From contig JBFIJV010000001.1 in NCBI GenBank assembly GCA_041600575.1, positions 33-64,032 of the forward strand: a stretch of DNA of 64,000 nt, given 5' to 3'. Below the pieces are notes generated by a model, which saw nothing but the letters and a program-made list of their open reading frames with translations, was not told the DNA's origin and did no database searches. Source of the DNA: Gammaproteobacteria bacterium. GTDB lineage: Bacteria > Pseudomonadota > Gammaproteobacteria > Eutrophobiales > Eutrophobiaceae. Shown here piece after piece: positions 995 to 32,427 of the stretch. The stretch's first letter is position 1. Every line of letters starts with the position of its first letter. A program made the translations under genes and the position numbers.

Positions 995-1570
995 ATGTGG
1001 CATAACGAAACTTCATTAATAAAATCACCTCGTGCTTTAGCTGTTGGTGATGTGCAATACCCTGCTTCAATCTTTACAAAGTGGTCAGAGGCAGACCTTA
1101 ACGCTATCGGGATTTACAAAGTCACCGAGATTAAGCCGAGTATTACTGACACGCAGAAATACGGTAACGCAATATTAGATATTGTGGCGCACACTTACAC
1201 GCATCCTGTGGTTGATATTCCTCAAGAAGTATTAGATAGGAAAGCACAAGAAGCAGCAGTAGCTTACATCACGGCAGTTAAAACAGAAGCGGGTAGACGT
1301 ATCTTGTCTTTCCTGCCCGAATGGAAGCAACGTAACTTGACTGCACGAATGACGGAATTACTTGAGATAGGTAAAGCTAATTGGACTATCGAGCAGCAAG
1401 AAGAAGTAGATACGATGAAAGCTATTTGGAAGCAAGTTAAGGTAATAAGGAAGCTCTCAGATACGTTAGAGGCAACACCTGTTGACAACCCAAATGATTA
1501 CAATAACTGGCCTGAGTTTACATGGTCAGATGCGGAAGTTGAGTTAAGCGAGGAAGTTGTACCTGAATGA
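995..1570 (+). CDS. Hypothetical protein (191 aa). Possible fibre assembly or accessory protein
   Basis: ORF with AGGAAA-type spacer directly after the fibre gene. No recognisable motifs. Confidence 0.45.
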   Translation: MWHNETSLIKSPRALAVGDVQYPASIFTKWSEADLNAIGIYKVTEIKPSITDTQKYGNAILDIVAHTYTHPVVDIPQEVLDRKAQEAAVAYITAVKTEAGRRILSFLPEWKQRNLTARMTELLEIGKANWTIEQQEEVDTMKAIWKQVKVIRKLSDTLEATPVDNPNDYNNWPEFTWSDAEVELSEEVVPE

Positions 1571-2133
1571 TTCAGCCATACGACTTATTCCTTTATGGCG
1601 CGTTAGCCGCCTTGCTCTGGATGCTGCGCGGCGGGATGTGGTACGACCGATTGCCCGATTGGTATCGGAACCCTTTCAACGGGAAAAAGCTCTCACTCAA
1701 AATACCAGCCACTTCAACAGTGGCTTTTTTGTATGTGTGGATTATTGGTTACAACCACTGGTGTTTGATATTCGTGGCTTGGTTGCCCGCGCTAACACAG
1801 ATAATGGGAACCGGCGATTACATGGGCAAGATGGCAGTAGGCCATGCGCCCTATCCTAAAGATGGTACAGGCTGGGAAAAATTCCAATGGACGAATAACG
1901 CGTGGTGGACTGGCGCAACTGCCGGTGCTATCTGGTCATTCCCGTGCTTATGGTTCGGTTACTTTATTGATACAAACTGGTATATCGCGTTTGCTTCAAT
2001 AGTCATCGCTGTTCCACTAGGCGGCATATTAAGCCGCACGATTTTCGACAAAGAGGACAGGTGGCTTGCAACTGAAGGTTTGCTTGCTGGTATAGCAATA
2101 TCACTAACTAATCTCTGGGTGACTTCCCAATGA
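1567..2133 (+). CDS. Integral membrane protein (about 4 TM, Trp-rich, 188 aa)
   Basis: ATGA overlap with the upstream gene. Several hydrophobic segments. Lies at the head of the lysis region. Confidence 0.5.
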   Translation: MIQPYDLFLYGALAALLWMLRGGMWYDRLPDWYRNPFNGKKLSLKIPATSTVAFLYVWIIGYNHWCLIFVAWLPALTQIMGTGDYMGKMAVGHAPYPKDGTGWEKFQWTNNAWWTGATAGAIWSFPCLWFGYFIDTNWYIAFASIVIAVPLGGILSRTIFDKEDRWLATEGLLAGIAISLTNLWVTSQ

Positions 2134-2405
2134 CATATGAACAACAAAATAAAGAGCAGCAAAACCAATCACGCAATAACGACGAATTAATACTGTATAA
2201 GCTCGATGAAATGAGTAACAAGATAGATGCTCAATCAAAAAAGATGGATGAGTACACCACCAAAACTGATTATCTTTTATTTGGCAATGGCACACCGGGC
2301 TTAAAGACAATCGTTGAGGTGCTTAAAACGCGAGTTACTATTATTAGTCTATTCCTGTTTGGCGCGTGGTCTGCACTTCTAACCAGTTTTTTTAAGGGCA
2401 ATTAA
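2130..2405 (+). CDS. Small protein with a polar N-terminus and one C-terminal TM helix (91 aa). Possible holin, antiholin or lysis regulator
   Basis: ATGA overlap. C-terminal 'IISLFLFGAWSALLTSFF' TM segment. Confidence 0.45.
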   Translation: MTYEQQNKEQQNQSRNNDELILYKLDEMSNKIDAQSKKMDEYTTKTDYLLFGNGTPGLKTIVEVLKTRVTIISLFLFGAWSALLTSFFKGN

Positions 2406-2846
2406 ATGAAACTTCTTCTTAAACGAAAGGCATCCAGCGCTAATCACATGCATGGAGATCTGTTTGATGGAGAGGGGCAATGGATATGCCACACCCTCGA
2501 AGATGAAAAAAGAAAAGTAAAGATTAAAGGTGAGACCGCTATTCCAGCAGGGGTCTACGAAATAAAGTTACGGCCTCTCGGCGAATCGAGGCTGGATGAA
2601 AAATACGCTGAACGTTTTGACTTTTACAAAGGCCAGTTGTGGCTGCAAGACGTTCCGAACTTCACGTACATTTATATACATTGTGGCAACACAGAGAAAC
2701 ACACTGACGGTTGTCCTTTGATTGGGCTGAAACGTTTCGCTACAACAATCGGCAATAGTCGTGATGCATACCGTAAATTTTACCCGATGGTAATAGCCGC
2801 ATTAGACGCGGGTGAGGAAATTTTTATCCACGTGGTGGACGCTTAA
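2406..2846 (+). CDS. Candidate endolysin with a YkuD/L,D-transpeptidase-like catalytic signature (146 aa)
   Basis: 'IYIHCGNTEKHTDGCPLIG' resembles the YkuD active-site pattern (x-I-H-G-T ... S/T-x-G-C-[IV]). It is the only soluble enzyme-like ORF in the lysis cassette. Confidence 0.4.
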   Translation: MKLLLKRKASSANHMHGDLFDGEGQWICHTLEDEKRKVKIKGETAIPAGVYEIKLRPLGESRLDEKYAERFDFYKGQLWLQDVPNFTYIYIHCGNTEKHTDGCPLIGLKRFATTIGNSRDAYRKFYPMVIAALDAGEEIFIHVVDA

Positions 2847-3065
2847 ATGATTAAGTGGCTGCTTTGTCTCGCAGTCCTTACACCACAAGACGGGAACTTA
2901 CTAATCCCATTTAAAGATGTGAAGGTTAGTAACACACGCGCCGAGTGCGAAGAATTAAAGAAAGACCCTAAGTGGGTCAGAATAAAATACACATACGAGA
3001 AATTTTCAGGCGCTGTTGCTGTTGTGGTTTGTGCCGGGTTTCCTGACTCAGAGGTGGAGACTTGA
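2847..3065 (+). CDS. Small protein with a hydrophobic N-terminus (72 aa)
   Basis: ORF abuts its neighbours. Signal-like N-terminus 'MIKWLLCLAVLT'. Confidence 0.4.
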   Translation: MIKWLLCLAVLTPQDGNLLIPFKDVKVSNTRAECEELKKDPKWVRIKYTYEKFSGAVAVVVCAGFPDSEVET

Positions 3066-3427
3066 TGACTGAATTTGTAATAGCTTACTGGTGGGCGATT
3101 ATGGCAATAGGTGTTTCACCTTTATTTGGCTATGCCGTTGCCCAGAGGGTCAAGGCTGTACGACCCAAACCTTCGAACGCAGTCATTATTAACGCGGCAG
3201 GGTTATCAACGACAATATCAGCCTTTGGCTTTTGGATGGAATACAGTGGTGTTTTATCTCAGTCGATAATGATGGCGGTCACTATAGGCATGATGCAGTT
3301 GTTGATGGTACGTGCCATATTCGGGCTAATGGAAAGATTCTTCCCGAAGGTGGCCAAAAGAATTGAAGAAGGCACTGACGATACAAGCACGATTCTTCCT
3401 TGGAAAAACAAATCAAATGATGATTAA
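3062..3427 (+). CDS. Class I-like holin candidate (3 TM, charged C-terminus, 121 aa)
   Basis: Three hydrophobic helices and a charged tail 'EEGTDDTS...KNKSNDD'. Sits immediately upstream of Rz/Rz1. Confidence 0.55.
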   Translation: MMTEFVIAYWWAIMAIGVSPLFGYAVAQRVKAVRPKPSNAVIINAAGLSTTISAFGFWMEYSGVLSQSIMMAVTIGMMQLLMVRAIFGLMERFFPKVAKRIEEGTDDTSTILPWKNKSNDD

Positions 3428-3842
3428 GGTAGTGGCAATACTTGTGTTGATTTTAGCGTCAGTATCATTTGGGTTATACAAGTCTGTTCAAGCGAATGGA
3501 GAGCTGAAGCAGCGCGAAGTGCAAATGGAGCAGGCGCTATCGGAGGCCAATAACGAAATCATTGCAATGGTCGAAACTGAAAAAGTTAACCAGCGTATTG
3601 CAGCAAAAAACATACAAACACGAAACACCATTATCAATACGTTGCGCAAGCAAGTCGCTCAGTTGAGTGAAATTGAAAACGGAGACCCCAATGTTAAAGA
3701 GTTTCTTGATATACCTATTCCTGACTCTGTTGTTGACTGGTTGCCAAAACCAGCCGGTGAAGACAAGGATAGTGAAGCAGTTCCCGCCGATGCAGTACAT
3801 GGAGCCGACTCCGATACCGTACCTGCAGGACAGAACGGTTAG
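3417..3842 (+). CDS. Rz: Inner-membrane spanin (i-spanin, Rz-like)
   Basis: N-terminal TM 'MMIKVVAILVLILASV', a coiled-coil periplasmic domain and an acidic C-terminus. Contains an out-of-frame lipoprotein gene. Confidence 0.7.
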   Translation: MMIKVVAILVLILASVSFGLYKSVQANGELKQREVQMEQALSEANNEIIAMVETEKVNQRIAAKNIQTRNTIINTLRKQVAQLSEIENGDPNVKEFLDIPIPDSVVDWLPKPAGEDKDSEAVPADAVHGADSDTVPAGQNG

Positions 3843-3945
3843 AGGTATGGCGATTTTAATTAAGGAACAACACGCGGCATTACTACAATGTAATGGCGAT
3901 AAAAAATCATTACAGGAGTGGGCTAAAGATGCCAACAACAACTGA
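3691..3945 (+). CDS. Rz1: Outer-membrane lipoprotein spanin (o-spanin, Rz1-like). Starts inside Rz in the +1 frame and extends past it
   Basis: 'MLKSFLIYLFLTLLLTGC' signal with an LTGC lipobox, followed by a Pro-rich short mature peptide. Confidence 0.7.
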   Translation: MLKSFLIYLFLTLLLTGCQNQPVKTRIVKQFPPMQYMEPTPIPYLQDRTVRGMAILIKEQHAALLQCNGDKKSLQEWAKDANNN

Positions 3946-4855
3946 GTACGATCCAACAACCGCTGCGACAACGCTTCCTCCAGCGCCAACTGACACGACC
4001 ATCACAGCAACTGGAGCAGACTCTCCTCCGATGGTCGGAGGGAACGATGCTATTACTCAAACAGTGGATCCTAACTCAACAGTTAGAACCCAAATGGAAG
4101 GGCTATTGGCTGAAGACAGTCAGTTCCTTCAACTGGCCAAGCAGGGAGCAAAAGAAGAAGCCAGCTCCAGAGGACTACTAAACTCCTCTATCGCGGCCGG
4201 AGCAGGACAGCGTGCTGCCATACAATCAGCCCTGCCTATTGCTCAGCAAGATGCCCAAACCTACGGCAACCAGCAGATAGCAAACCAGAAATATCAGAAT
4301 GACTATGGCCTACAAGAAAACCAAGCCAACTATACAAACGAGATGGCTGACAACGAAGTTGCTCGACAAGAGCAGCTCGCAATAACAAAGACAGAGCTGA
4401 ATAAAGACGCTGCTCAGTACGCAGCGGAACTCGACATGCTGAAGCAAAACGATGCACAGGCTTACCAGACGTTTTTAACTAACTTAAACACAAGTAATCA
4501 ACAGGAATTAATGGCGGCGGAAGCGCATATTAAGAATGAATTGGCTTCGATTCAGCAGGATTATGCAGTTCAGTTGGAAAAGATAAAAACCAATCTCGCT
4601 ATACAAGGCAATATTGATTCGCAGGTGGGTGCGTTATACGCTGATAACATCAAATCAATAGGAACTATTTTGGCCAGCCCTGACATATTAGCCGCAGATA
4701 AAAACAGCTTGGTCGATATTATGATGAGCAATATGAACACCATGTCCACATACTTAAACGCTATAAAGCAAACGAGCGTGACAAATCAGGCCACAGCAGA
4801 AGCTGACACCGTTGACACCTCGATAGACCTTTACCAGCCTAATTACGCTGCATGA
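3929..4855 (+). CDS. Virion/internal protein (Thr/Ala/Gln-rich, coiled-coil)
   Basis: GGAG RBS before ATG 3929. Low-complexity N-terminus and Q/N-rich coiled-coil segments. Confidence 0.5.
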   Translation: MPTTTEYDPTTAATTLPPAPTDTTITATGADSPPMVGGNDAITQTVDPNSTVRTQMEGLLAEDSQFLQLAKQGAKEEASSRGLLNSSIAAGAGQRAAIQSALPIAQQDAQTYGNQQIANQKYQNDYGLQENQANYTNEMADNEVARQEQLAITKTELNKDAAQYAAELDMLKQNDAQAYQTFLTNLNTSNQQELMAAEAHIKNELASIQQDYAVQLEKIKTNLAIQGNIDSQVGALYADNIKSIGTILASPDILAADKNSLVDIMMSNMNTMSTYLNAIKQTSVTNQATAEADTVDTSIDLYQPNYAA

Positions 4856-5301
4856 AGTTATTTATAAGGGAGACTGAGTTATCAGATTGGCTTCCTGTAA
4901 AAGAACTCCTTACCCGGCTACACGATAAAGCGCCTTACAGTAAAGTTCCAATAAATTACCCGGACATGAAGCGAACGTTTGCGACAACAGCTCGCAGCAA
5001 GAACGCACTTTCTATGGTGGTGGCTGATAAAAAACACAGAATTTACGGTGTGTGTATTTGTATTACGCAACCAAATTGGTGGGGAGCCACTTGCTCATTA
5101 GAGCTAGTCACATATTGCGAGGCTCCGGGTTGGCAAGATAAGTTGATCAGGCGTTATGTAAAGTGGGCAAAAGAAAGAAATATTCAAGTAATCACGGTTG
5201 TTAATTCTGCTGGAGAGAATCCACGTTATGACAATCTCATTCAAAAAATTAATTTTCAAAAGACAGGTAGCGTACACATGATGCTACCGGAGGGTGAATA
5301 A
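4852..5301 (+). CDS. Hypothetical protein (149 aa)
   Basis: ATGA-coupled ORF. GNAT-like fold is not supportable from motifs alone. Confidence 0.45.
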   Translation: MKLFIRETELSDWLPVKELLTRLHDKAPYSKVPINYPDMKRTFATTARSKNALSMVVADKKHRIYGVCICITQPNWWGATCSLELVTYCEAPGWQDKLIRRYVKWAKERNIQVITVVNSAGENPRYDNLIQKINFQKTGSVHMMLPEGE

Positions 5302-6143
5302 TGGGTTTTATAGCTGATGTGTTCTCAGGCATTTTCGACTTTATCGGAGACGTTATAGGGAAAGTAGTTGATGTTGTTGGGAAGGCAATTAAGTTTGCTA
5401 TGGACAATCCACTGATACTTGTCGCAGCGGGGATAGGTATTGCTGCCTACGCAGGCTCGATAGCCGCCGCCGGTGCAGGGGCGGGAGCTGCCGGTGGTAC
5501 TGGCGGAGCTACTTTCGGAGGTTTTGTGAGTCAAGGCGCTACCGTAGCGGCTACAACAGCAGGGTCATCAGGAGCGTCAGTTTTAGCCGGCGCAACAGGT
5601 TTTTCTCAGGCTGGTGTAGCTGCTGCAAACACAGCCGCTGGCCTCGGAACGACGGCTGCGGGTGTTGGTGCAGCAGCCGCACCGGGCGCAATGGCCGCAG
5701 CAGGAAGCGCTGTCGGGGGAGCTGTGGCCGGCGCTGCTGGAAACGGTTTTTTATCAGGCATTGTTAAGTCAGGCAAAGGTTTGCTTAACTGGGCTGAGAA
5801 CAATCAGATGTTGGCAAGTACGGCTTTTCAGAGCGTCGCAGGTGGCTTAAACAATCTAAGACAAGATGAGATACTTAAAGACCAGCGTGCGTTTGAACTC
5901 GACTACATGGATAAAAAATACAACAAAGAGTATGACACTGCAGTAGCCCTCGAAGAAGAGAAGCGTCGCATGAACGATGAAGAGCAGATGCAGGCTTATG
6001 GCGGCTTATTGGACATACAGGGCGCAACAGGACAAACCAACCAACAATTGATTGGTGAAGCAGGATTACTCAACTATCAACCTCGATTAGAAGGCTCTCA
6101 GAATGAGGGCTACGCAGAAACAATGCAGGGTGTTTACTCATGA
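5301..6143 (+). CDS. Gly/Ala-rich internal virion/ejection protein
   Basis: Hydrophobic N-terminus, then a long (G/A)n tract, then a charged C-terminus. Confidence 0.5.
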   Translation: MGFIADVFSGIFDFIGDVIGKVVDVVGKAIKFAMDNPLILVAAGIGIAAYAGSIAAAGAGAGAAGGTGGATFGGFVSQGATVAATTAGSSGASVLAGATGFSQAGVAAANTAAGLGTTAAGVGAAAAPGAMAAAGSAVGGAVAGAAGNGFLSGIVKSGKGLLNWAENNQMLASTAFQSVAGGLNNLRQDEILKDQRAFELDYMDKKYNKEYDTAVALEEEKRRMNDEEQMQAYGGLLDIQGATGQTNQQLIGEAGLLNYQPRLEGSQNEGYAETMQGVYS

Positions 6144-17392: not shown

Positions 17393-17616
17393 GTGCTTTA
17401 TGTAGAGCAACAGGAGGCAGGGTTCCGCTTTCTGTTATCTCTTCAACAACAGAGGGCAGACTTTGCGCCTCACTTACTTATGATCTTGGTGGCAGCAGTG
17501 GCGGGACAGGAAAGTCAAAGAAATACCTAAAATTACAGCGCAACCTCCAAATTGAAGAACGCGACATACAAGAAATAACAACAATACTTATTGCATCAGG
17601 AATCCTAGACGAATGA
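17389..17616 (+). CDS. Small hypothetical protein (75 aa)
   Basis: Coupled ORF. Confidence 0.35.
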   Translation: MSALCRATGGRVPLSVISSTTEGRLCASLTYDLGGSSGGTGKSKKYLKLQRNLQIEERDIQEITTILIASGILDE

Positions 17617-20600
17617 GCCTAACAAATTGTTTAAAAAGTTTAGACATCAGCAAAGATACTGCTAAAGACGTAAAACGTATTGCACGTTCTTACCGAGAAG
17701 ATGACGGAATGAGTCCCAACGACGCAAGCCTTGCCGCAGCAAAAGACATTCTCTCCGATCTTATTGATTACAGAAATCAAATCTCAGAAGAAATTGAAAG
17801 CAAAGGGCATGAAGCCCCTCGTAGGTCAGAAGCAGCAGTCAAGGCAGACTTGACAGAAGGAGGCAGGACGGCTAAATTAAGCCGTAAGTGGCCTATTGAT
17901 CCCAGTGATGATATCCCTACCGCCTTGGTTAAAACGATTGGCGCGGATATGGATAACTTTGTAACAGAGCTGTCCGACAAGAAGTCGATGGCAGACATAG
18001 CGAACGACGTTGCTAAGCAAGTTAAGGTGCAGGAAGCTGCACCATTACCTAATCCAGACCAGACTCCTCAGACAGCGCAAGCAGCGTTTCTAGAAAAGAG
18101 GCGCAACAAGCCAGATATGCCTTATGAATACTGGCTGACAATGACGGATGAAAACGGCAAAGAGATTGTGGATGATTTGCATGTCCCGATGACGGCGACT
18201 GTTCTTGAGTTCAAGCGCGAAGGTGTTATTGAGATTGACATAAGCTCCTTTAAGAAAGGGAATGGCGGCAATGTCATATATCAAGTTGTTGCTAACTACG
18301 CGCTTAATAACGGTTTAAGATTTCAAGGTGATAGGCAGGGCTTGTCTCCGATAGCACGAATTAGACGTACTGAGCAGATGTTAGCGGCGGCAGCAAAAGC
18401 TGGAACAACTACCCATTTACTGCCGCACCATTGGCAGTATCAAGGCGAAACCGGAACTGAAAATGTTGAAGGTGTTGTTAGGCTAGACTGGAGAAGAGAC
18501 GAAGACAACCACAACTTAAAAGAAATGGTTAACTCGCTGACAGACACATGGCACAATTTAGTGCCTTCACTGAACGAGATGACCTACAATTTTGAAACGG
18601 AGAGGTTTGAGAATGAAGAAGGACAACTTATCGAAGACGGTGTATTCGAAGACGCAGCCGAGTCTGCACGAGCTAATGAACTCCAGAAAGAAGGAGGGGG
18701 AAGCCTTGGTTACACAGATGAACAAGGCATACCAGCAGGGAGCGGCTCGCTTAAAAGAGCTGTATATTTCAAAGCAGCCAGAGGTTTACAAGGACAAGCC
18801 GCTGAGCTACTTTCGGGGCAAGATGATAGGCTCGCCAAATATGTTCGGGGATTTAAAAAGAATACAAAAGACGGAAAAATAAGTTACTCCCGCAAAATCA
18901 CTCCTGAAAAAACAGAAGTCATACCTAACTTCTCTATTATCACTCCATCAATTGTCAGTCAGTCGTCACAAGACGTACAGCAGGTTGATGGTTGGTTGAA
19001 GTATCTGCAGAACAAAGGCGTTAAGAAGGAAGAAATGGAAGCGCTCGGACTGACTGCTGAGGAACTATCGTCACTTTCTTTGGAATTATTTAAAAACAAT
19101 AAAAAATACAAAAACCCAAAGCAACTATCTAAAGAAGATCTGCTTGAGTATATTGACAATCAGTCAAATCAACTCAAATTTATCGAGGAGTTTAGAGTTG
19201 GGAACAGATCTTCTTATTCCAATATGATTCTTCCAGAAGATTACGGTAAAAAAACCGGATATTTTGTCTCTGTGGTTGACTCACCTAAAGCGCCTTGGCA
19301 AAAATTGCCCACTTTTACAGAGCATTTTATTGGCGAAAACGATGATAGTTATAATAATTTTGCTCATTACAGAGCAACAATTAGGGAGGATGCTAACAGC
19401 AAGCGGTTTCTATTAATAGAGGAGCTGCAATCTGACGGACACCAACGCGCACGAAAGAACGGTTATGAGGATAGAGACCTCTCATCGGAAGATGCAGACC
19501 TCACCAGCAAAATGACAGCGGTTGGCGAAAACATACAAGACATTGATGTGTTTCTGGAAGACACGCACAACCAATTAGATTCGCTGATTGATAGCGCTAC
19601 GAATGATTTTGATTTTGAATTAAAAAAAATGTCCCTTAAGTTTGTTTCTGGATTAAAAAAGAATGATAGCTACAACGAAAAGGTTCAGAAAGTATTCAAA
19701 AACAGAAGCCTTCCGGACGACGAAGGGCTGTTTAATTTAATGAAGGAATATCTTGATACCTTAGATAAAGCGACTAAAAAAATTGATGAGGCGTTCAATA
19801 AGGCAGGTATAGACCTAAGAGTTGCAACTTCTAACAACAGCAGATCCATGACCCATAAACCAGAACTATTTGGTTTAATGCCTTTAGAAACAGAAGCCAT
19901 TTTAACCCAAGGCAGTATCTGGGATATAACGTCTCTCACCGAGATATCAAAAGCTATTTCTGGTGCTACTGAGAGCGCTAACTTAAATATGCGCAAAGTT
20001 CCGTATATGCCAATGAAGGTTGGTTGGGAAATGTTTTTGATAAAGAAGGCGATGGTATTTGCCAAGAAAAACGGATTAAAACAAATACGCTTCCCTGCTA
20101 CTTATGAGCAAGTTGATCTCATAGAAAAATGGGGGGGCACCGAACTCCCCGGAATGGAAACTATAGCCAAAAGATACACTGAAAAACTACCCCGACAAAT
20201 AAACAGTCTTATTAAAAAGTATGGAAGCAAGGTTGAAAAAACAGAATTCAAAGTAAAAGAAAAAGACAGTATATTGAAGAAACGTCAGGCTGAAGATATT
20301 ACCTTGATATATCAGAGCGCTGATCCTGTGATAATTAAAGTCCCAATAAGAGCAACAAGTATTATTCATTCAATCGAAGGTGACAGTTTAGTCCCTATGA
20401 CAGTGCAGGAGTATGACGAAACCGAAATTGGAGAAGAGGTTTATGTTGTTGGATATACAACCAAGGATTCTCAAACGAATGGCAGTACATCAAGAGCTAT
20501 AAAAAGGCACTTCTCTAACACCACTACATCAAACAATATACGAGATATTGTCGGTTACGATCTGTATGAGCAAAGCCTCTTCGCAGAAGATAGGAGTAGT

Positions 20601-23423
20601 GCAGAGAATTTAATGGTTCACCTTAAGCGTGACATGGAAGAAGAATATCAGCGGGCACTTGATTTAATAAATAATCCACCAAAGAAAACAGACGAACTAA
20701 ACTCATTCGAGATAACACCTGAGCTTGAAGAGTACATCGACAACATGACGATGTTCTCTCGTAAGATGAATGAAGGAACGTCTTATGACAGGAATAACCA
20801 AGTTGAGCCTGAAGTTTTCTACCACGACACAAGCCAGCCTACTGCATCAGAAAGCGCGTCAATAACTTCACGAGTAAAAGAGTTTATTGATGGCTTCCGC
20901 TACGAAATGCAGGATAAGCATATCTATTTGAAGCGTGCTCAAGAATTAGCTGGCGACGTATCTGAGTCAGAAGATGCTTATGGAGCAGAGTCACTCTGGC
21001 AGGGCAAAGCCGGTGAAGTTATTGGTCAGTTTGGTAAATCACAAGCCGAGCCAATCATGAAGAAGATCGGTGAGACTGGCATGGAACTAGAAGAGGTTGA
21101 GCGTTGGTTGCACGCACGCCACGCTGAAGAAGCTAACCGCTATCTTCGTGGTATAAACCCTAACCGTAACGATAACGATGCATTGTCAGGTATGACTGAC
21201 CAAGAAGCATTGCAAATACTGGCCACTAATCAAGGGAATGAGGCATTACAAGAAGTGGGCAGCATGATTGATAATTTAAACAACAGTCGTCTCGATATGA
21301 TGCTGGAATACGGACTGGTTGATGCAGATTCTGTTGCCGCATGGCGAGCGACTTATGAGCATTACGTTCCATTGCGACGCGAGGAGCAGGAAGATCTGAT
21401 CTCCGCACGTGCATCCGGTTTTAATATTCGTGGCAAAGAAAGTCGTGAGCGTTTAGGTTCCACGCTGCCTGTTACTAATATACTGGCACACACCTTTGCT
21501 CAGTACGAGAACAGCATTGTTCGTGGTGAAAAGAACATTGTTGGTCAGGCGCTGTTTAATTTTGCGCAGGCCAATAACTCTTCTGGCTGGTGGACTATCG
21601 ATGAATTGAAACAGGTCGGCAAAGTTAAAGACGGTGAGGTGCAGTGGTTTAATGATCCGCGTGAGACCGACGAAGAACTGAATGTTAAAATAAACGGCAC
21701 AACCCATCGTATTCGTTTTAACAGGAATAATAAGAGCGCTATTCGCATACTCAAGGCAATGAAAAATCTTGAGAGCAAGGAGATGAATCCATTCATCAAG
21801 ACGTTGCTGGGTATTAACAGGTTCCTGAGTAGCATTAATACATCTTTCTCACCTGAGTTTATTATCTCCAACTTTACGCGTGACTTGCAGACAGCCGGCT
21901 ACAATCTGGGCGACACTGAATTATCCAGTATGGAACTAAGTGTCATGAAAAATGTACCGGGCGCAATTAAAGGCTTGAAACAGAATATTCGTGGTGACAG
22001 GACTGATACCGCGTGGTCTCAGTGGGCAGAGCGATTCCGTTTGGCTGGAGGCAAGACCGGTTGGATAGACAATATGAACAATATTGAAGACCGTCACTCA
22101 AAATTAGAGAAGCAATTACAGCGAATCAGAAAAGGCAAAGCGCCTCGAAGTGTATTTATGTCTTTTATTCACATGGTTGAGGACTACAACTCTATTGCTG
22201 AGAACGCAGTGCGTCTCGCCGCATTTAAGACAGCCGTAGAAAACGGCGTATCAGAGCAAAAAGCAGCGATTTTAGCCAAGAATTTGACCGTAAACTTTAA
22301 TCGCAAGGGAATGTCAGGCTCGACAATGAACGCGCTGTATCTCTTCTATAATGCCTCTATTCAGGGTTCTACGCGTATGCTACAAGCAATGGTCAAATCA
22401 AAGAAAGGCCGTATGTTGGCAGCGGCCACGATAGGTCTCTCAGTGGGCTTGGATATTATGAACCGCGCTATGTCTGGAGACGACGATGATGGTGAAAACA
22501 TCTATGACCAGATACCGGATTACGTGAAAAGCCGTAACTGGATAATAATGGGTGAGAAAGAGCCGATAGTTAAGATCCCATTGCCTTGGGGTTACAACGT
22601 TCTTCATATCATAGGACAACAGATTGGCAAGGGATTCACAGGAAAGGACTTCAATGCGCTGGACTCCACCGGTGTTGTCATGAAAGGCATAATCGATTCG
22701 TTCAACCCGGTAGGTAGCGGCACGTTGTTACAAACCGTATCTCCGACAATTGGTGACCCTGCTGTGATGATAGCTGAAAACAAGAACTGGGCAGGTCAAC
22801 CACTTAAACCAGACCAATTGCCGTTCGGAGTTAATAAACCTGAGTACCAAATGCATTGGCGCAAACACAACGACACTATTATGAAAGACGTGTCGAAGTT
22901 CCTCAACGACTTGTCAGGTGGCGACAGTGTGCGGCCGGGCGCGATAAACATCTCGCCAGAATGGATCGAGGTCTTTAGTGACTTCGCAACAGGTTCTGCT
23001 GGCCGGGTAGTATCAAACACATTTTCAACAGCACGCAAAGCCGTTGCTGGTGAAGAGTTGCCTACTCAGGAAATCCCTTTTATACGCAAAGTGACCGGGT
23101 TTGATTCAGAGCGACAGTTACAGTCTCGCTACTACGAACGCGTTGAGGATATTCAATATCACCGTAAACAGCTTGATGCGGCCAAGGTTAGCAGGGATAA
23201 AGAGGTTTCTAAGCAGTTACTGTCAAATCCACGCACTCAATTACTTAAGCTGGAAAAAGACGTGTCAAAGGCGCTCAAGAAGCTAAGTCAAAACAAACGT
23301 AAGATTGAGCAGTCCAGCCTGTCAGATAAAGACAAAGAGAAGCGTGTCGAAAAAATCGACAGCATAATTCGAATGTACCAAGCGCGATTTAGCCGGCTGT
23401 ACTCTGAACGCGTCAAGTCTTAG
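17613..23423 (+). CDS. Giant protein (1936 aa) of unknown function. Likely a virion-associated or injected protein
   Basis: Uninterrupted 5.8-kb ORF at the distal end of the late operon. No Walker A and no T7/N4-type RNAP motifs found. Confidence 0.6.
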   Translation: MSLTNCLKSLDISKDTAKDVKRIARSYREDDGMSPNDASLAAAKDILSDLIDYRNQISEEIESKGHEAPRRSEAAVKADLTEGGRTAKLSRKWPIDPSDDIPTALVKTIGADMDNFVTELSDKKSMADIANDVAKQVKVQEAAPLPNPDQTPQTAQAAFLEKRRNKPDMPYEYWLTMTDENGKEIVDDLHVPMTATVLEFKREGVIEIDISSFKKGNGGNVIYQVVANYALNNGLRFQGDRQGLSPIARIRRTEQMLAAAAKAGTTTHLLPHHWQYQGETGTENVEGVVRLDWRRDEDNHNLKEMVNSLTDTWHNLVPSLNEMTYNFETERFENEEGQLIEDGVFEDAAESARANELQKEGGGSLGYTDEQGIPAGSGSLKRAVYFKAARGLQGQAAELLSGQDDRLAKYVRGFKKNTKDGKISYSRKITPEKTEVIPNFSIITPSIVSQSSQDVQQVDGWLKYLQNKGVKKEEMEALGLTAEELSSLSLELFKNNKKYKNPKQLSKEDLLEYIDNQSNQLKFIEEFRVGNRSSYSNMILPEDYGKKTGYFVSVVDSPKAPWQKLPTFTEHFIGENDDSYNNFAHYRATIREDANSKRFLLIEELQSDGHQRARKNGYEDRDLSSEDADLTSKMTAVGENIQDIDVFLEDTHNQLDSLIDSATNDFDFELKKMSLKFVSGLKKNDSYNEKVQKVFKNRSLPDDEGLFNLMKEYLDTLDKATKKIDEAFNKAGIDLRVATSNNSRSMTHKPELFGLMPLETEAILTQGSIWDITSLTEISKAISGATESANLNMRKVPYMPMKVGWEMFLIKKAMVFAKKNGLKQIRFPATYEQVDLIEKWGGTELPGMETIAKRYTEKLPRQINSLIKKYGSKVEKTEFKVKEKDSILKKRQAEDITLIYQSADPVIIKVPIRATSIIHSIEGDSLVPMTVQEYDETEIGEEVYVVGYTTKDSQTNGSTSRAIKRHFSNTTTSNNIRDIVGYDLYEQSLFAEDRSSAENLMVHLKRDMEEEYQRALDLINNPPKKTDELNSFEITPELEEYIDNMTMFSRKMNEGTSYDRNNQVEPEVFYHDTSQPTASESASITSRVKEFIDGFRYEMQDKHIYLKRAQELAGDVSESEDAYGAESLWQGKAGEVIGQFGKSQAEPIMKKIGETGMELEEVERWLHARHAEEANRYLRGINPNRNDNDALSGMTDQEALQILATNQGNEALQEVGSMIDNLNNSRLDMMLEYGLVDADSVAAWRATYEHYVPLRREEQEDLISARASGFNIRGKESRERLGSTLPVTNILAHTFAQYENSIVRGEKNIVGQALFNFAQANNSSGWWTIDELKQVGKVKDGEVQWFNDPRETDEELNVKINGTTHRIRFNRNNKSAIRILKAMKNLESKEMNPFIKTLLGINRFLSSINTSFSPEFIISNFTRDLQTAGYNLGDTELSSMELSVMKNVPGAIKGLKQNIRGDRTDTAWSQWAERFRLAGGKTGWIDNMNNIEDRHSKLEKQLQRIRKGKAPRSVFMSFIHMVEDYNSIAENAVRLAAFKTAVENGVSEQKAAILAKNLTVNFNRKGMSGSTMNALYLFYNASIQGSTRMLQAMVKSKKGRMLAAATIGLSVGLDIMNRAMSGDDDDGENIYDQIPDYVKSRNWIIMGEKEPIVKIPLPWGYNVLHIIGQQIGKGFTGKDFNALDSTGVVMKGIIDSFNPVGSGTLLQTVSPTIGDPAVMIAENKNWAGQPLKPDQLPFGVNKPEYQMHWRKHNDTIMKDVSKFLNDLSGGDSVRPGAINISPEWIEVFSDFATGSAGRVVSNTFSTARKAVAGEELPTQEIPFIRKVTGFDSERQLQSRYYERVEDIQYHRKQLDAAKVSRDKEVSKQLLSNPRTQLLKLEKDVSKALKKLSQNKRKIEQSSLSDKDKEKRVEKIDSIIRMYQARFSRLYSERVKS

Positions 23424-23760
23424 AGGTGAGCGTCTCGGCTACTGCGAAAGCTATTGAGGTTTCGAGTATCTGTTCTGAATTATTGATTGCAGCCACCTCG
23501 CTCATTATCTCAGCAGGGATAAGGTCAAGGTCAAGAGGCAATCCGTAGAAGGCGCAAAAACAAGCTGCACAGTAATTTTGCTTTTTTCTTAAAGACATGT
23601 TGTGAACAACAGACGGAATGACAGGGGTGAATCTATTGATAAATTGCGTGCTAAACCATTCAAAATAATATTTGTATTTAAGTGGAATACGCACGTCAGC
23701 GTAATCGCCAAAAGTGATTCCTTTTGTTATGTCACTAACATTCTTATCTGTATTAATCAT
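23413..23760 (-). CDS. Hypothetical protein (115 aa)
   Basis: ORF between the late operon end and attP. Confidence 0.35.
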   Translation of the reverse strand: MINTDKNVSDITKGITFGDYADVRIPLKYKYYFEWFSTQFINRFTPVIPSVVHNMSLRKKQNYCAACFCAFYGLPLDLDLIPAEIMSEVAAINNSEQILETSIAFAVAETLTSKT

Positions 23761-23801
23761 GGGAAAGCCGTAGCTAATTTATTGTTTTATATAGTAATCC
23801 A

Positions 23802-23851
23802 CAGCACTCATAACGCTGGGGTCGGTGGTTCAAGTCCACCCATAGCCACCA
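23802..23851 (+). tRNA. Partial tRNA from anticodon stem to CCA end (anticodon CAT, Met/Ile2-like). Putative attP core
   Basis: Anticodon loop ctCATaa, T-arm GGTGG-TTCAAGT-CCACC, then CATAGCC-A-CCA acceptor 3' strand. No 5' acceptor partner is found upstream. Lies 11 bp from the integrase stop. Confidence 0.55.
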
Positions 23852-23861
23852 ATACCAACCG

Positions 23862-24791
23862 TTACAGCGATAGTGGTCGCAAACTTACACTCTTCGCTGA
23901 GCCTAGCACAGCACGGCGGACTTTATCGACCTTACTTGGCGCATAAATCGCTTCTGTAGTAGACTTGTCTGCATGGCCGAGCTGGGATTGAGCTGTCTCC
24001 AAGTCATAGTCTTGGCGAAGCCTGTTACCGCATGTTCTGCGTAAATCATGCAAACGTAAGTCCGGGGAGCCAATGGTGTTTCGTAATGTTCGCCATTGGT
24101 TCCTCAACCACCAGTACGATACTGGTTTCCCGTCTTTACTGAACGCATAATCACTTAACGGTTGACGACGAATAATCTCCAGTGCCTGCGCACTGAGGTA
24201 ACGACACTCCCATCGACCCGACTTATTATCGTCCGGGGCGAGCATAGCTTCGTCACCATGAATATTGCATTGCTTCAACGTTAACGCTTCGCGTGCGCGA
24301 AACCCGGTCTCCAAATAGAACATCACCAAATCTTTCAACAGGCCGCTACTGTTTTCAAGCAGCAACACGTTCTCCTCTGGTGTCAATATCCTTCTGCGCG
24401 GCTGCTGCTGTTTGCGGTCTGCCTTTGAATATTGTCTATCGAAGAAAGGGTTTCGTAGTTCCCAGTCGAGTTCCTTATTGCAGTAACGAATCGCGGAAGA
24501 CGCAACTGTGATTTCACGCGCAATCGTCGCCGGCGCAATGCCTTTGGTTTTACGCCACTCACGGTATTGTCTTACATCCTCGCCCACAATCATCCCTCGT
24601 ATTTTCATTTCAGCCAACTTCTTGCTCTTAAAATAATCTTTTAATGGCAGTGAACACGTTCCGTCGCGCTGTTGCGAACTGAACTTATTCTCTTTATTGC
24701 CCTGTCGTAAGTACAACGTTATTACTTCACTGAATGTTTTCACCATAGCAATTTCTCCTACGCTACGGCTTCCCACATCAAATGTTTTCAT
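23862..24791 (-). CDS. int: Tyrosine integrase (P4-like)
   Basis: C-terminal 'HDLRRTCG' (HxxR) and 'AIYAPS' catalytic Tyr. 'FRAREAL' box Arg. Adjacent to the attP tRNA fragment. Confidence 0.85.
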   Translation of the reverse strand: MKTFDVGSRSVGEIAMVKTFSEVITLYLRQGNKENKFSSQQRDGTCSLPLKDYFKSKKLAEMKIRGMIVGEDVRQYREWRKTKGIAPATIAREITVASSAIRYCNKELDWELRNPFFDRQYSKADRKQQQPRRRILTPEENVLLLENSSGLLKDLVMFYLETGFRAREALTLKQCNIHGDEAMLAPDDNKSGRWECRYLSAQALEIIRRQPLSDYAFSKDGKPVSYWWLRNQWRTLRNTIGSPDLRLHDLRRTCGNRLRQDYDLETAQSQLGHADKSTTEAIYAPSKVDKVRRAVLGSAKSVSLRPLSL

Positions 24792-24912
24792 AATCTCTCC
24801 ATAATTTCAATTGTAATTTACCGAGAACGTCTATTCTGATAACACGACAACCTGTTGTGACGTGTTAACCAATTCTCTTTCCTGATCTTGCGTTTGCACA
24901 CTTTTAGCTTCC

Positions 24913-25335
24913 TCATTGATCGTGATAAATTCTTGCGTACTCTTGCCATTGAACCCAGCCTTCCTCAGTCCAAAAACCCCACTCTCTTATTTTTCTGCTT
25001 GTGAAGACAAGTGAGATACAGCCGCCTTCTTTAACCTCAACAATACGATGACTGTCTTCGGCTTTAATGATGTTGAGCCAACGTCTTCTTATGTAATAAC
25101 CACTTCTATTTTCAATGTAATTACCTTTTAAGATAAACGAGATGAAGCTGGCTGGATGGTCGTGACTGTGACGCTGTTTATCAGGGTGATAAAACATGTT
25201 GGCCATAATGGTAAACAACGGACAGTGAAAAAAATAAAGGCGACGCATATAAAGCACGCCATCAGTTTCTATATCTTTCCAGCGCCAGAAAGCAAACTTA
25301 CTGCCGTGAGTATATTCGCGTCTTTTTTTATTCAT
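24913..25335 (-). CDS. Hypothetical protein (140 aa) with an HxD...H pattern
   Basis: ORF upstream of int. Contains 'YHPDKQRHSHDHP'. Confidence 0.4.
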   Translation of the reverse strand: MNKKRREYTHGSKFAFWRWKDIETDGVLYMRRLYFFHCPLFTIMANMFYHPDKQRHSHDHPASFISFILKGNYIENRSGYYIRRRWLNIIKAEDSHRIVEVKEGGCISLVFTSRKIREWGFWTEEGWVQWQEYARIYHDQ

Positions 25336-25607
25336 GCATAACCTTCTTTACTGTTCGGTATAATTTTTAAATGTTGTGCTTTAAATAGTGGTTTTTGTAC
25401 CGTACTGAAAATATTCCATCACTCATACAACACCCATCCTGATAAACACTATTAATGTCAATACACTTATACATTAACCCCCTTTAATGCTTTTTTAATG
25501 GCAATAGTTGCCTCTACTAATGCCTCGATAGATTTCATTATCTGAGAAATTACAAAGATAAACACCTTCTTCATCAGTCAACCTATCGTTTACACTTATC
25601 CATTCGC

Positions 25608-25838
25608 TCATACATCACCCTCTTCAATCTCGGTTATTAATCTATTGCCTGCCCTTAGTGCAGCGCCAGATATGCGGTTTAATATTCCGCCAGTTCGTTC
25701 GTTAATACTTGTCAACGCGTCTTCGTACATAGTGGCTTTTCTTAAAACACGAAGATGCGCCTCCGATAGAGTTGTGTTCTGCTCTTTTAATATTCGCAGC
25801 TCTTCTTTGTAATCGACTTCAGTTTTAATTTTAGCCAT
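25608..25838 (-). CDS. Hypothetical coiled-coil protein (76 aa)
   Basis: ORF. Confidence 0.4.
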   Translation of the reverse strand: MAKIKTEVDYKEELRILKEQNTTLSEAHLRVLRKATMYEDALTSINERTGGILNRISGAALRAGNRLITEIEEGDV

Positions 25839-26242
25839 CTAGTTGTTCCTGTTATTCATGTTAGAGAGAAGCGCCCAGCCCAAGTAAGTTACACAGCAAA
25901 CATTAACAAAAGTTAATTTAAGGGCTGGGTGCTTCATTTATTAACCAACACGCTGTCAGGTATAACAACATGCTCATCATCAATCTTTATAACAATATCA
26001 ATATCCACCTGCGCCAGACCGTAAGCGATAGCCACCGACAGGACACACCTACCCATGAAGCTAGCTAACGCTTCCATGAGAAACTCCTCCACTTACCTCT
26101 GAGTTATCAACTGTAAACGCTTTAAGTTCTTTCACTTGAGCTAAAAAAGAAAGCAGCTCTGGTGAATACTCATCAAATCTTGACGTGTCGATAAAACGCG
26201 TCATTTCGTAGGCAAGACCCATGTAGTCGTTCTCACTAGCAC

Positions 26243-26554
26243 TCACCATAATGTCTTTCTCGCTATTTCACCCTTATCTTCCATAACAGGAATAACCATT
26301 GAGCCTTTCTTGTGTTCGCTGAGTGCTGACTTGTAATTGTCGTCGTTAGCATAAAACTCCAACGTGTCACGCAGCGCCATTATTTCCTTGTCTTTATCAA
26401 CAAGCTGTTCTCTGCAAACGTTGGTCAATGACTTGCGCAAGCAAATATTTTCTCGCTCCAAGTGTCGCGCAAAATCAGCGCTAACAACGGAGTTGTTTGG
26501 CCAGTTGTTTATTTCTGGATGACTTTCTTTGTCTGTCAATGGTGTATCGCTCAT
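26243..26554 (-). CDS. Hypothetical protein (103 aa)
   Basis: ORF. Confidence 0.4.
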   Translation of the reverse strand: MSDTPLTDKESHPEINNWPNNSVVSADFARHLERENICLRKSLTNVCREQLVDKDKEIMALRDTLEFYANDDNYKSALSEHKKGSMVIPVMEDKGEIARKTLW

Positions 26555-26754
26555 GAGTTAGTAAACCTCCGCTCTTTTTTTATTTTTTGACTCTCGACAT
26601 ACACCTTACTGCAGCCTTTGCATTTAGTGCCTTTGCCCATCACGCCACCACAGACCCACGCAAATTCATCGAGTGACTTCTCTATCTCGCACGTAATGCA
26701 AGTACGAAGACGTGACCTTAAATAATCCTTTTTAGCTGGTCTCTTGGCTCTCAT
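26551..26754 (-). CDS. Small zinc-ribbon protein (67 aa)
   Basis: CxxC...CxxC pattern. Overlaps the csrA-like stop in another frame. Confidence 0.4.
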   Translation of the reverse strand: MRAKRPAKKDYLRSRLRTCITCEIEKSLDEFAWVCGGVMGKGTKCKGCSKVYVESQKIKKERRFTNS

Positions 26755-26905
26755 TTCTTGCCTTTACCTCCTCTCGTAAAATGTTTACGTCTTTAGGTGC
26801 ATCAAAACCTAGCTTGACTTGATTCTTGTCAATTGAAATAACAGTAACTGTCATGTCGTCTCCGATATGAACTGACTTGCCTAACTTAACGCCTAGTAAC
26901 AACAT
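26732..26905 (-). CDS. csrA: CsrA/RsmA-family RNA-binding protein homologue (57 aa). Absent from the ORF track
   Basis: Translation is MLLLGVKLGKSVHIGDDMTVTVISIDKNQVKLGFDAPKDVNILREEVKARNESQETS. It aligns along its whole length with CsrA (ML.L....G....IGD.VTVTV......NQV.+G..APK.V...REE+). AGAGGAAG RBS 8 nt upstream. Starts 18 nt after the helicase stop. Confidence 0.7.
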   Translation of the reverse strand: MLLLGVKLGKSVHIGDDMTVTVISIDKNQVKLGFDAPKDVNILREEVKARNESQETS

Positions 26906-26922
26906 AATTATTCTTCCTCTTA

Positions 26923-28509
26923 TTAAAATTTATAATCAACAACGTTCTCATGCTTTCCGTTTCTTACTATTTTTATTTGCTTCGGTTTATTTAATAAACG
27001 TGTTTGCATTAGCGACTCCGATACAGTTGCAGGCGCGTAAAGCCCTCCGTGAGTCGCCCACCATTGTTCTGCTTTCTTGCGTGCGTAACCGGTGTGCTCA
27101 ACACAAACCCATTCGTTTATTTTTCTAAGGCCGCAACTGTAAATAACGCGCAACGTGTTCTTCTTTGTTTTCTTCGAAACGTGTGGCATATAATCGATGC
27201 GCTGAATGTCATGCCACTCAGGTTTAATGTCGTCAGATAACAGTGCCGACTCTGAGGCGTAAGCGTTATGATTTATTTCGCGCTCAAGTGTTGGGTACTC
27301 AAAGCCGCACACACATTCTTTAAGCTGAATAGGATTAATTGTTTGGCACTCAGGACATTCTCTTGTTGGCGCAACGCCCGGCCTGCCGCTTTTGCCGTCA
27401 GGGACTGACAAGTTATCAATGCAACCGTGTGTTGAAACATTGCCGGCAAAGTCCATAATCAAACAGTCTGTTTTACCCGCTGCTTTTCTAAGACCTCGAC
27501 CAACCATTTGATAGTACAACCCCACCGACTTCGTGGGTCGAAGTAACGCAATCAAATCTATGTGGGGAGCATCAAAACCTTCCGTCAAAATATTGACGTT
27601 GATTAAACAGCGTAATTTCTTGGCCTTGAAGTCTGCAATATACTGGGCACGCAAATCACTTGATGTGTCGTCGGTCAATACTTCCGCGTGAATACTGTGG
27701 TCACTAATTAAGCTGTTTTTGACGTACTCAGCGTGCAACTTGTTGACACAAAAAATAACCCACCCTTCTCTCGGCTTATTAAAGTCAAGACCAACATGCG
27801 CTATCTCTTTGCACGCTGACATGGTGATTGCATGGTCGTGAGCGATAATACTTAACGAACCCTGTGTGTAATCACCCTTGCCATTAGCAACAAGATTAGA
27901 TGTGTCTATTTTTTGTTTGCCACCACGAGCAACAACGCGAGACAAGTACCCCTCGTCGATAAGTCGTTTAACACTCGCTTCGTAAGCAACGTTTTGAAAC
28001 ATTTTTCTCGCGCCATATATTTTCCCGCTACCCATACGGTAAGGCGTGGCAGTGAAGCCGATGACGCGCAAGTTCGGATTAACCAGCATCAGTTTACTGA
28101 TAAGCTGTTGGTACATGCTGCTCTCTTCTTGGCTCACCCTGTGAGCCTCATCGATAAACAGCAGATCGTAGTGGCCAAGGTTGCTAGCGCGGTAAACACT
28201 CTGAACCCCAGCGAACACAATATTGGCGTGCAGTTCTTTTGCGCCTAGCCCAGCAGAGTAGGTTGCTATATCCCCATCGTAGGCGCTCTTTAGTTCGTCT
28301 CGGTTTTGTTCTACCAACTCCTTGGTGTGTACAGCGTTCATGATGCGCGTGTCAGACCACAGCGAAGTGTATTTACGAATTATCTCGGCCATGATGTAGC
28401 TCTTGCCGCCGCCAGTAGGAATAACCACCAACGGGTTGCCGGTCTCTTGCCGTAAATAAGCATCTACTGCTGTGAGTGCTTCCTGTTGGTATTTACGTGA
28501 CTCCATCAA
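26923..28509 (-). CDS. SF2 DEAD/DEAH-box DNA helicase with a C-terminal zinc finger
   Basis: Walker A 'PTGGGKS', 'FIDEAH' DEAH box, 'GFTATP' motif III, 'QMVGRGLR' motif VI, C-terminal CPEC...CVCG. Confidence 0.8.
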   Translation of the reverse strand: MMESRKYQQEALTAVDAYLRQETGNPLVVIPTGGGKSYIMAEIIRKYTSLWSDTRIMNAVHTKELVEQNRDELKSAYDGDIATYSAGLGAKELHANIVFAGVQSVYRASNLGHYDLLFIDEAHRVSQEESSMYQQLISKLMLVNPNLRVIGFTATPYRMGSGKIYGARKMFQNVAYEASVKRLIDEGYLSRVVARGGKQKIDTSNLVANGKGDYTQGSLSIIAHDHAITMSACKEIAHVGLDFNKPREGWVIFCVNKLHAEYVKNSLISDHSIHAEVLTDDTSSDLRAQYIADFKAKKLRCLINVNILTEGFDAPHIDLIALLRPTKSVGLYYQMVGRGLRKAAGKTDCLIMDFAGNVSTHGCIDNLSVPDGKSGRPGVAPTRECPECQTINPIQLKECVCGFEYPTLEREINHNAYASESALLSDDIKPEWHDIQRIDYMPHVSKKTKKNTLRVIYSCGLRKINEWVCVEHTGYARKKAEQWWATHGGLYAPATVSESLMQTRLLNKPKQIKIVRNGKHENVVDYKF

Positions 28510-28543
28510 GCCACTTCTTCCCAGTCAAGATTGTGTTTTTTCA

Positions 28544-28750
28544 TTAGTTGCTCTCAAACGTTGCGTGCTGCTTTCCGCAGTAGCACTCGAATTTAGGATA
28601 GCCGCATGAGTCACACAAGCCGCAGTACGCATGTCCTAAAGTGCCTGCTTCATGGCAGTTAGCTCTATCCAAATCATCATCAACAGGGTCGCGCCCTGTT
28701 AACTTTTTAAACTCAGACTCATTCATCGTCTTCTTTTTTCTCCACTGCAA
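28544..28750 (-). CDS. Small Cys-rich protein (68 aa)
   Basis: Eight Cys/His in 40 aa. Confidence 0.35.
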   Translation of the reverse strand: MQWRKKKTMNESEFKKLTGRDPVDDDLDRANCHEAGTLGHAYCGLCDSCGYPKFECYCGKQHATFESN

Positions 28751-30256: not shown

Positions 30257-30310
30257 AGACTCCTCCTGTAGTTTGTTGTCATTTCCTTTTCCCTTTCATG
30301 CTTTAGCGAT

Positions 30311-31527: not shown

Positions 31528-31543
31528 GATTACTCCTTTTTGT

Positions 31544-32394: not shown

Positions 32395-32418
32395 TAAGGC
32401 TTGCTCGAAAGCAAGCCA
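32395..32418 (-). terminator. Strong hairpin just downstream of the cI stop. Possible terminator or processing site
   Basis: GGCTTGCT-cgaa-AGCAAGCC perfect 8-bp stem. Only a weak T-tract follows. Confidence 0.35.
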
Positions 32419-32427
32419 AACACTGGG

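Follow-up and report, generated by a model that had tools for sequence, protein, structure and literature searches.

The 64,000-nucleotide window analysed here (contig JBFIJV010000001.1, positions 33 to 64,032 of the forward strand) holds the genome of a phage, and its gene at 2406-2846 (+) probably encodes the endolysin of that phage, a holin-dependent cysteine-histidine L,D-peptidase. The protein belongs to the Pfam family DUF5675 (PF18925) and is related through profile alignments to the Tlde1 effectors. Its gene occupies the enzyme position of a holin-spanin cassette, in a closed genome where no other muralytic domain was detected. The endolysin role, the dependence on a holin and the bond cleaved are inferred from these comparisons.

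The DUF5675 protein and its predicted active-site motif

The open reading frame (ORF) described for 2406-2846 in an earlier note on this DNA is confirmed in the window, where it encodes 146 amino acids (aa) on the forward strand, and the histidine/cysteine motif quoted for it is present as well. This motif, IYIHCGNTEKHTDGCPLIG, covers residues 89-107 (nt 2670-2726, +) and forms the predicted active site, with the codon of His92 at 2679-2681 (cat) and that of Cys103 at 2712-2714 (tgt), two residues that fall in the invariant core of the family. Indeed, the protein matches DUF5675 with an E-value of 2.2e-23 (82.7 bits for a gathering cutoff of 26.7), residues 5-128 being aligned on profile positions 2-111 of 114, and it also matches PHROG 1501, a family of 'unknown function', with an E-value of 5.6e-26. 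PF18925 is carried by all of the detected homologues (161/161). His92, Gly102 and Cys103 are invariant among 48 close homologues. A 52-sequence alignment, which takes in crAss-like, Campylobacter and Salinibacter phage proteins at 27-73% identity, leaves Arg7, Glu32, His92, Gly102, Cys103 and Ser118 invariant, and the window protein has all six, while Leu105, at the second position after the cysteine (Cys+2), is near-invariant in the family. Owing to this clear membership and to the invariance of His92, Gly102 and Cys103, the motif cannot be regarded as a chance occurrence. The second cysteine of the motif, Cys93, was rejected as the catalytic residue, as it is not conserved in the family alignments.

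Another gene caller (P0001) starts the gene at an ATG at position 2448 (Met15). This start was rejected and the one at 2406 preferred because the alignments of homologues begin at residue 1 and Arg7 is invariant. The gene touches its neighbours on both sides: the stop codon of a 91-aa ORF directly abuts its ATG (taaATG) and its own stop is followed without a gap by the ATG of a 72-aa ORF (TAAATG), so that it appears tightly (translationally) coupled to both. Neither a transmembrane (TM) segment nor a signal peptide is predicted in the protein. From PF18925, the AlphaFold2 (AF2) model and the hhalign alignment to the Tlde1 superfamily, it is annotated as a predicted soluble Cys-His L,D-peptidase and candidate endolysin.

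Relation to the Tlde1 and YkuD families

The AlphaFold2 model of the DUF5675 protein is a very confident one, with a predicted local distance difference test score (pLDDT) of 96.3 and a predicted template modelling score (pTM) of 0.89. In a Foldseek search of BFVD, its fold is shared with proteins annotated 'L,D-carboxypeptidase/transpeptidase' or 'DUF5675', and a weak match is obtained to a phage 'Tlde1 domain-containing protein' (probability 0.98, TM-score ~0.5). At the sequence level, no match was found in NCBIfam, and the match to Tlde1_dom (PF10908, DUF2778) reaches 14.7 bits (E 0.042), below the gathering cutoff of 30.1 bits. Sub-threshold matches to the same domain were found independently in 33 of the 48 family members (best 21.6 bits, E 3e-4), the best of them spanning profile positions 12-103 of 120, catalytic stretch included.

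Profiles were compared with hhalign using Tlde1-superfamily rows of Alignment_S1 in the paper on the structure of Tlde1a (PMC9638812). The DUF5675 profile aligns with 13 such rows at a probability of 85% (E 6e-6) and with 30 rows, Tlde1a being the master sequence, at 90.7% (E 1.3e-6); reversed-sequence controls gave 0.2-0.3%. The alignment pairs IPAGVYEI with IPEGNYKL, and IYIH92...DGC103 with FYIH121...HGC131 of Tlde1a. In the latter, an L,D-carboxypeptidase/transpeptidase with a crystallographic LD-transpeptidase fold, His121 and Cys131 are experimentally essential, and the enzyme cleaves the bond between meso-diaminopimelate (mDAP) and D-Ala (10.1101/2020.02.18.954545; PMC9638812).

Canonical YkuD proteins were compared in the same manner. 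The window protein does not match PF03734 (YkuD), two of its 48 relatives do so with an E-value of 0.07 or weaker, and hhalign against single sequences of Bacillus subtilis YkuD and of Escherichia coli LdtB, LdtE, LdtD and DpaA was not significant. When the YkuD alignment was used as the seed of a homologue search, the sequences obtained were all near-identical LdtB proteins of enterobacteria, which brought no added diversity. The motif itself departs from the canonical HXX14-17-(S/T)HGC-h pattern, with a His92-Cys103 spacing of 11 residues, with T-D before Gly-Cys where YkuD proteins have (S/T)-H, and with Leu105 at Cys+2 in place of the Arg of L,D-transpeptidases. This Arg is also missing from YkuD-fold hydrolases such as DpaA (PMC8263019).

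As far as sequence comparison goes, these results support a placement of the window protein in the YkuD-like superfamily, on its Tlde1 side and outside both Pfam families PF10908 and PF03734, with the Tlde1/DUF2778 L,D-carboxypeptidase/transpeptidase effectors, and not canonical YkuD, as the closest characterised relatives. The YkuD fold and active site proposed in the earlier note are therefore retained at the superfamily level, through the Tlde1 alignments, and given up for canonical YkuD on account of the lack of a PF03734 match, the spacing and the Leu at Cys+2.

The lysis cassette

The arrangement that had been described for the gene, flanked by membrane proteins and upstream of a holin and Rz/Rz1, is borne out by the TM predictions and by LysC and PHROG matches of the spanins. 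The cassette comes after the tail-fibre gene, which extends to 979, and a gene for a 191-aa acidic protein (995-1570). Its putative first gene (1567..2133, +) encodes a 188-aa membrane protein with at least two TM segments (residues 52-70 and 138-156) and no Pfam or PHROG match. It overlaps by 4 nt the next gene (2130..2405, +), coding for the 91-aa protein already mentioned, which is polar in its N-terminal region, has one TM segment, at the C-terminal end (residues 69-87), and is a candidate holin, antiholin or lysis regulator. The DUF5675 gene then precedes the coupled 72-aa ORF (2847..3065, +), whose product begins with a short hydrophobic signal-like stretch (MIKWLLCLAVL) and has no family match in Pfam or PHROG.

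Further downstream, the gene at 3062..3427 (+) encodes a protein of ~120 aa with at least two TM segments (residues 5-23 and 69-87) and a charged C-terminal tail (KVAKRIEEGTDD...KNKSNDD), which has no family match and is called holin-like from its topology and position. An Rz-like i-spanin follows at 3417..3842 (+), with an N-terminal TM segment (residues 2-20), a long periplasmic domain and matches to PHROG 214/89/5151 'Rz-like spanin' (E 2.8e-9); the longest form of this ORF starts at 3363. Next comes an Rz1/LysC-like o-spanin lipoprotein at 3667..3945 (+), which carries the lipobox LLLTGC, matches Pfam LysC (E 1e-15) and PHROG 456 (E 2.3e-18), and is encoded in a different frame that overlaps Rz at its 3' end. 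A 149-aa acetyltransferase-like ORF (4852-5301, +; PHROG 1249, E 1.8e-9) lies after the spanins and ahead of the genes that code for large and probably internal virion proteins. Also downstream of the cassette, a 280-aa protein encoded at 5301-6143 (+) has an extremely Gly/Ala-rich centre (AGAGAGAAGGTGGATFGG...) and no family match.

Search for another lysin in the closed genome

The first 72 nt of the window are identical to its last 72 nt (nt 63929-64000), and the window therefore represents a complete genome of 63,928 bp that is either circular or terminally redundant. A tail-fibre/lectin-like ORF of ~800 aa crosses the junction in frame (from 62508 through the junction to 979); it contains DUF7483 and has SPRY/concanavalin-like matches in Pelagibacter, Methylophilales and Roseobacter phages.

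A Pfam screen at E<1e-3 of the 79 ORFs of at least 60 aa in the closed genome detected no muralytic domain elsewhere, whether lysozyme, transglycosylase, amidase, M15/M23, CHAP or NlpC. Searches of PHROGs and of PDB sequences revealed no lysin domain hidden in the large virion proteins, so that none of the other screened ORFs, those of the large and probably internal proteins included, showed a canonical endolysin domain. This absence of a rival lysin holds at the sensitivity of hidden Markov models (HMMs), and the earlier observation that no other lysin motif could be recognised can be extended, at Pfam sensitivity, to the whole closed genome.

DUF5675 genes in other phages

The association of DUF5675 genes with small membrane proteins recurs in other phages. 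Such proteins are encoded by 24 of 67 immediate flanking genes compared with 33 of 239 genes at three or more positions (Fisher p = 1.3e-4), and 23 of 37 lineage clusters have at least one of them as a neighbour. Within two positions of DUF5675, 130 genes match 102 PHROG families, the two most recurrent of which are both holins. Three Steigviridae crAss-like genomes have the homologue directly after 'lysis regulatory protein/holin' genes and before the small terminase. In a 67%-identical relative, too, the small terminase comes just after the gene, which adjoins genes of TM proteins, and in a 66%-identical relative two small ORFs and then a LysC o-spanin come after it. The DUF5675 gene of Salinibacter phage M8CC-19 has a tail protein gene before it and, after it, genes for a hypothetical protein, a TM protein and a holin, the latter being three genes downstream.

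Some family members are fused, as continuous polypeptides, to other lysis-related domains. A 364-aa protein (P0246) combines DUF5675, with its catalytic motif kept, and Amidase_3 (N-acetylmuramoyl-L-alanine amidase), and a 367-aa protein (P0329) combines it with GTA_holin_3TM. The endolysin reading of the earlier note, which is that of a predicted role, thus finds support in its context, namely the cassette slot, the lack of a rival enzyme, the holin-type neighbours across lineages and the Amidase_3 fusion. Several proteins of 510-537 aa have a C-terminal DUF5675 domain preceded by ~350 aa without Pfam match. In crAss-like phage cr7_1 (NC_055895.1), the homologue annotated 'putative transpeptidase' (L096:2501-2923) contains an in-frame stop under translation table 11, which is consistent with stop-codon reassignment in that crAss-like lineage.

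Such a role has been predicted before. Records of crAss-like phages already bear the name 'L,D-carboxypeptidase/transpeptidase [phiCrAss001]' for proteins encoded next to holins, the paper on PhiCrAss001 counts three lysis genes, and a 2026 preprint classes DUF5675 (LysPd160) as 'C82-like' from its structure (bioRxiv 10.64898/2026.04.11.717860). The prediction is therefore public, and the window protein adds corroboration, not discovery. The family is also large, with 10,679 clusters at 50% identity in an exhaustive HMMER search at E <=1e-3 (4,878 at E <=1e-10), and relatives are encoded on at least 585 IMG/VR viral contigs. The lysis enzyme class considered uncommon in the earlier note is, in view of these counts, of the crAss-like annotations and of the preprint, neither rare nor unrecognised. 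A literature search found no report of an experimentally tested YkuD-fold endolysin.

Proposed mechanism

As a small soluble enzyme, the DUF5675 protein would accumulate in the cytoplasm. Because it is soluble and has no signal peptide, permeabilisation of the inner membrane by the holin-type proteins of the cassette would be needed for it to reach the peptidoglycan; once the wall has been weakened by the enzyme, the Rz/Rz1 spanins would disrupt the outer membrane. By analogy with the L,D-transpeptidase-fold cysteine peptidases Tlde1, Csd6 and DpaA, Cys103 activated by His92 may attack the carbonyl at the L-centre of mDAP in the stem peptide to form a thioester. The latter would be resolved by water, making the protein a hydrolase rather than a transpeptidase, and hydrolysis would be favoured over cross-linking because the Arg at Cys+2 is missing. 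Lytic action would imply the cutting of load-bearing bonds, either mDAP-D-Ala of the donor stems in 4-3 cross-links or mDAP-mDAP in 3-3 cross-links, and the trimming of free tetrapeptides alone would be insufficient for lysis. The lytic role would require a hypothetical endopeptidase action on cross-linked stems.

Other features of the phage

The regions 23413-33138 (a block on the - strand) and 48271-50541 carry markers of a temperate phage, namely a Phage_integrase match and an S24 peptidase/helix-turn-helix (HTH) repressor, together with an SU10-type portal and adaptor. The portal is only 35% identical to those of its closest cultured relatives, which are Vibrio phages, and megablast of the first 12 kb against phage records gave no match. 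The phage is regarded as temperate, of SU10-portal type, with a Gram-negative and probably marine host. The gene at 17613-23423 (+) encodes 1936 aa with domains of the LPD37/LPD38 'large polyvalent protein' type. Over its C-terminal 860 aa, this product matches PHROGs 14770 and 616, whose members are 2800-3400 aa long, and its N-terminal 1070 aa have no match.

Comparison with known systems

The crAss-like DUF5675/PHROG 1501 proteins of the PhiCrAss001 lineage resemble the window protein in being small, single-domain, full-length family members with the invariant His/Cys pair, encoded beside holin or lysis-regulator genes. They are only 27-36% identical to it, and their phages infect Bacteroides hosts, whereas the protein described here belongs to a temperate phage with an SU10-like portal, Rz/Rz1 spanins and a Gram-negative host.

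With Tlde1/Tae5 (DUF2778, PF10908; PDB 7UMA for Tlde1a), the DUF5675 protein shares a homologous core, with the IPxGxY strand and the H...GC motif in register, a short His-Cys spacing (10 in Tlde1a vs 11), the absence of Arg at Cys+2 and, as a prediction, a single-domain organisation with action in the periplasm. Tlde1 is delivered from outside by a type VI secretion system (T6SS), whereas the DUF5675 protein is presumably released from inside by a holin. Moreover, Tlde1 has a cognate immunity protein, Tldi1 (DUF2195), whereas neither a DUF2195 match nor T6SS genes were found among the neighbours of DUF5675. The position of the 72-aa ORF recalls the Tlde1/Tldi1 effector-immunity pairing, and nothing supports an inhibitor role for its product.

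Canonical YkuD proteins (PF03734, MEROPS C82; 1Y7M, LdtA-E), as well as Csd6 and DpaA, have the Cys-His pair and the same order of motifs and of predicted secondary structure, namely three N-terminal strands, G-x-T-x-I-P-x-G-x-Y, a strand ending in His, a loop, Gly-Cys, a strand, a helix and a final strand; in DpaA, the transpeptidase Arg is missing too. Unlike canonical YkuD proteins, the DUF5675 protein has no LysM or peptidoglycan-binding domain and no signal peptide, and its His-Cys spacing is shorter. Among established lysins, the L-alanoyl-D-glutamate M15 peptidase of phage T5 and the CHAP/NlpC-P60 enzymes are likewise small globular peptidases of holin/spanin cassettes, and CHAP lysins use the cysteine-histidine chemistry predicted for the DUF5675 protein. 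Their folds are unrelated, and they target L-Ala-D-Glu or D-Glu-mDAP, whereas the bond predicted here is the L,D bond at mDAP.

Alternative explanations

Several points weigh against the endolysin role, and they are taken together with the other explanations of the gene. A literature search found no reported activity for any DUF5675 protein, and the 2026 preprint calls its function still unknown (bioRxiv 10.64898/2026.04.11.717860). Tlde1, the closest characterised relative, is mainly an L,D-carboxypeptidase and exchange enzyme (10.1101/2020.02.18.954545; PMC9638812), an activity that alone should not rupture the sacculus, and carboxypeptidase-type 'endolysins' are considered poorly lytic (PMC13236837). 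More than half of the ORFs of the genome have no family assignment, so that an unrecognised lysin may lie among them. Salinibacter phage M8CC-19 carries, beside DUF5675, a separate protein annotated as a 'cell wall hydrolase' (gp41), for which reason DUF5675 was rejected as being always the sole lysin of its phage; gp41 (L104:35186-35824) has a signal/TM region and is located in the replication module. The window protein could then be an accessory peptidoglycan trimmer, either a pure L,D-carboxypeptidase or a D-amino-acid exchanger like Tlde1, the real endolysin being an unrecognised ORF. This is judged unlikely, given the Pfam screen of the closed genome, the enzyme slot that the gene fills in a complete holin-spanin cassette, and an association with holins that recurs across many lineages. 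In addition, spanins act only after the wall has been degraded. A DpaA-like amidase would instead cut the mDAP tethers to outer-membrane proteins or Lpp at lysis, aiding the disruption of the outer membrane rather than degrading the mesh. The short His-Cys spacing of DpaA (HGDCVSIGC) would fit, as would its YkuD fold and its hydrolysis at the mDAP L-centre without an Arg at Cys+2 (PMC8263019), which DUF5675 lacks as well. Nevertheless, such a function is improbable, as the similarity to DpaA is not significant (hhalign probability 0.1%), the phage would still require a wall-degrading enzyme, and the family is found in phages of Bacteroides, Salinibacter and Campylobacter, hosts without known Lpp-type tethers.

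The gene could also be located in a structural module by coincidence and encode a virion-associated or ejected enzyme that penetrates the wall at infection. The cassette has the tail-fibre gene on one side and, on the other, genes of large virion proteins that are probably internal. Structural genes surround the homologues of cr7_1, cr50_1 and Cygsa01; in the latter, a T4-like Pseudomonas phage, the DUF5675 gene (L002:4001-4450) stands between portal and prohead-core genes. The fold is also found inside phage proteins of 868-1251 aa (BFVD A0A8S5VTR0, A0A1L7N1E2 and A0A7H0XAI4; e.g., in Ralstonia phage RP31). The Cygsa01 locus and these large proteins suggest that virion-associated versions of the same enzyme exist. 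The family is therefore not exclusively one of endolysins; it forms a general peptidoglycan-directed module of phages that frequently, though not invariably, takes the endolysin position. In the present genome, a virion-associated function has little probability: the protein is a free one of 146 aa without virion-attachment domain, its gene is coupled to those of small membrane proteins, and the spanins are encoded immediately downstream. Lastly, the His/Cys pattern might be coincidental and the protein a non-peptidase of unrelated fold. Foldseek of the model against the PDB gave no significant match (best E 0.054, TM-score <=0.2), Tlde1a (7UMA) and YkuD being absent from the matches of this pLDDT-96 model, and PDB sequences searched by phmmer and hmmsearch with the single protein and with family profiles gave none either. 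hhalign against a 5-sequence YkuD profile was not significant (probability <1%), and the Tlde1_dom and YkuD matches are all below the Pfam gathering thresholds. Against a coincidence stand the invariance of His and Cys across the 52 sequences, the hhalign E-value of 1.3e-6 with catalytic residues in register and clean reversed controls, the Amidase_3 fusion of one family member and the independent structure-based 'C82-like' assignment, which together make it highly improbable. A holin-dependent endolysin is hence kept as the probable role of the window protein.

Significance for phage lysis

For the family as a whole, a wider proposal can be put forward more tentatively, and it is rather doubtful at this stage: DUF5675 may represent a widespread endolysin catalytic class of ~10,000 clusters, composed of Tlde1/YkuD-like Cys-His L,D-endopeptidases that would cut the L-centre mDAP bond in cross-links and act as the only lysin of phages that infect Proteobacteria, Bacteroidota and Campylobacterota. 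To our knowledge, no characterised endolysin class targets the L-centre mDAP carbonyl bond in cross-links. The genome described here offers a clean test case because it is closed, has a complete holin/spanin cassette and contains no second candidate enzyme. If DUF5675 proteins are indeed endolysins, a large class of cysteine L,D-peptidases, possibly sensitive to carbapenems, copper and thiol reagents, would join the endolysin repertoire and provide new enzybiotic scaffolds. It would also account for lysis by many marine, gut (crAss-like) and Campylobacter phages in which no lysin is recognisable.

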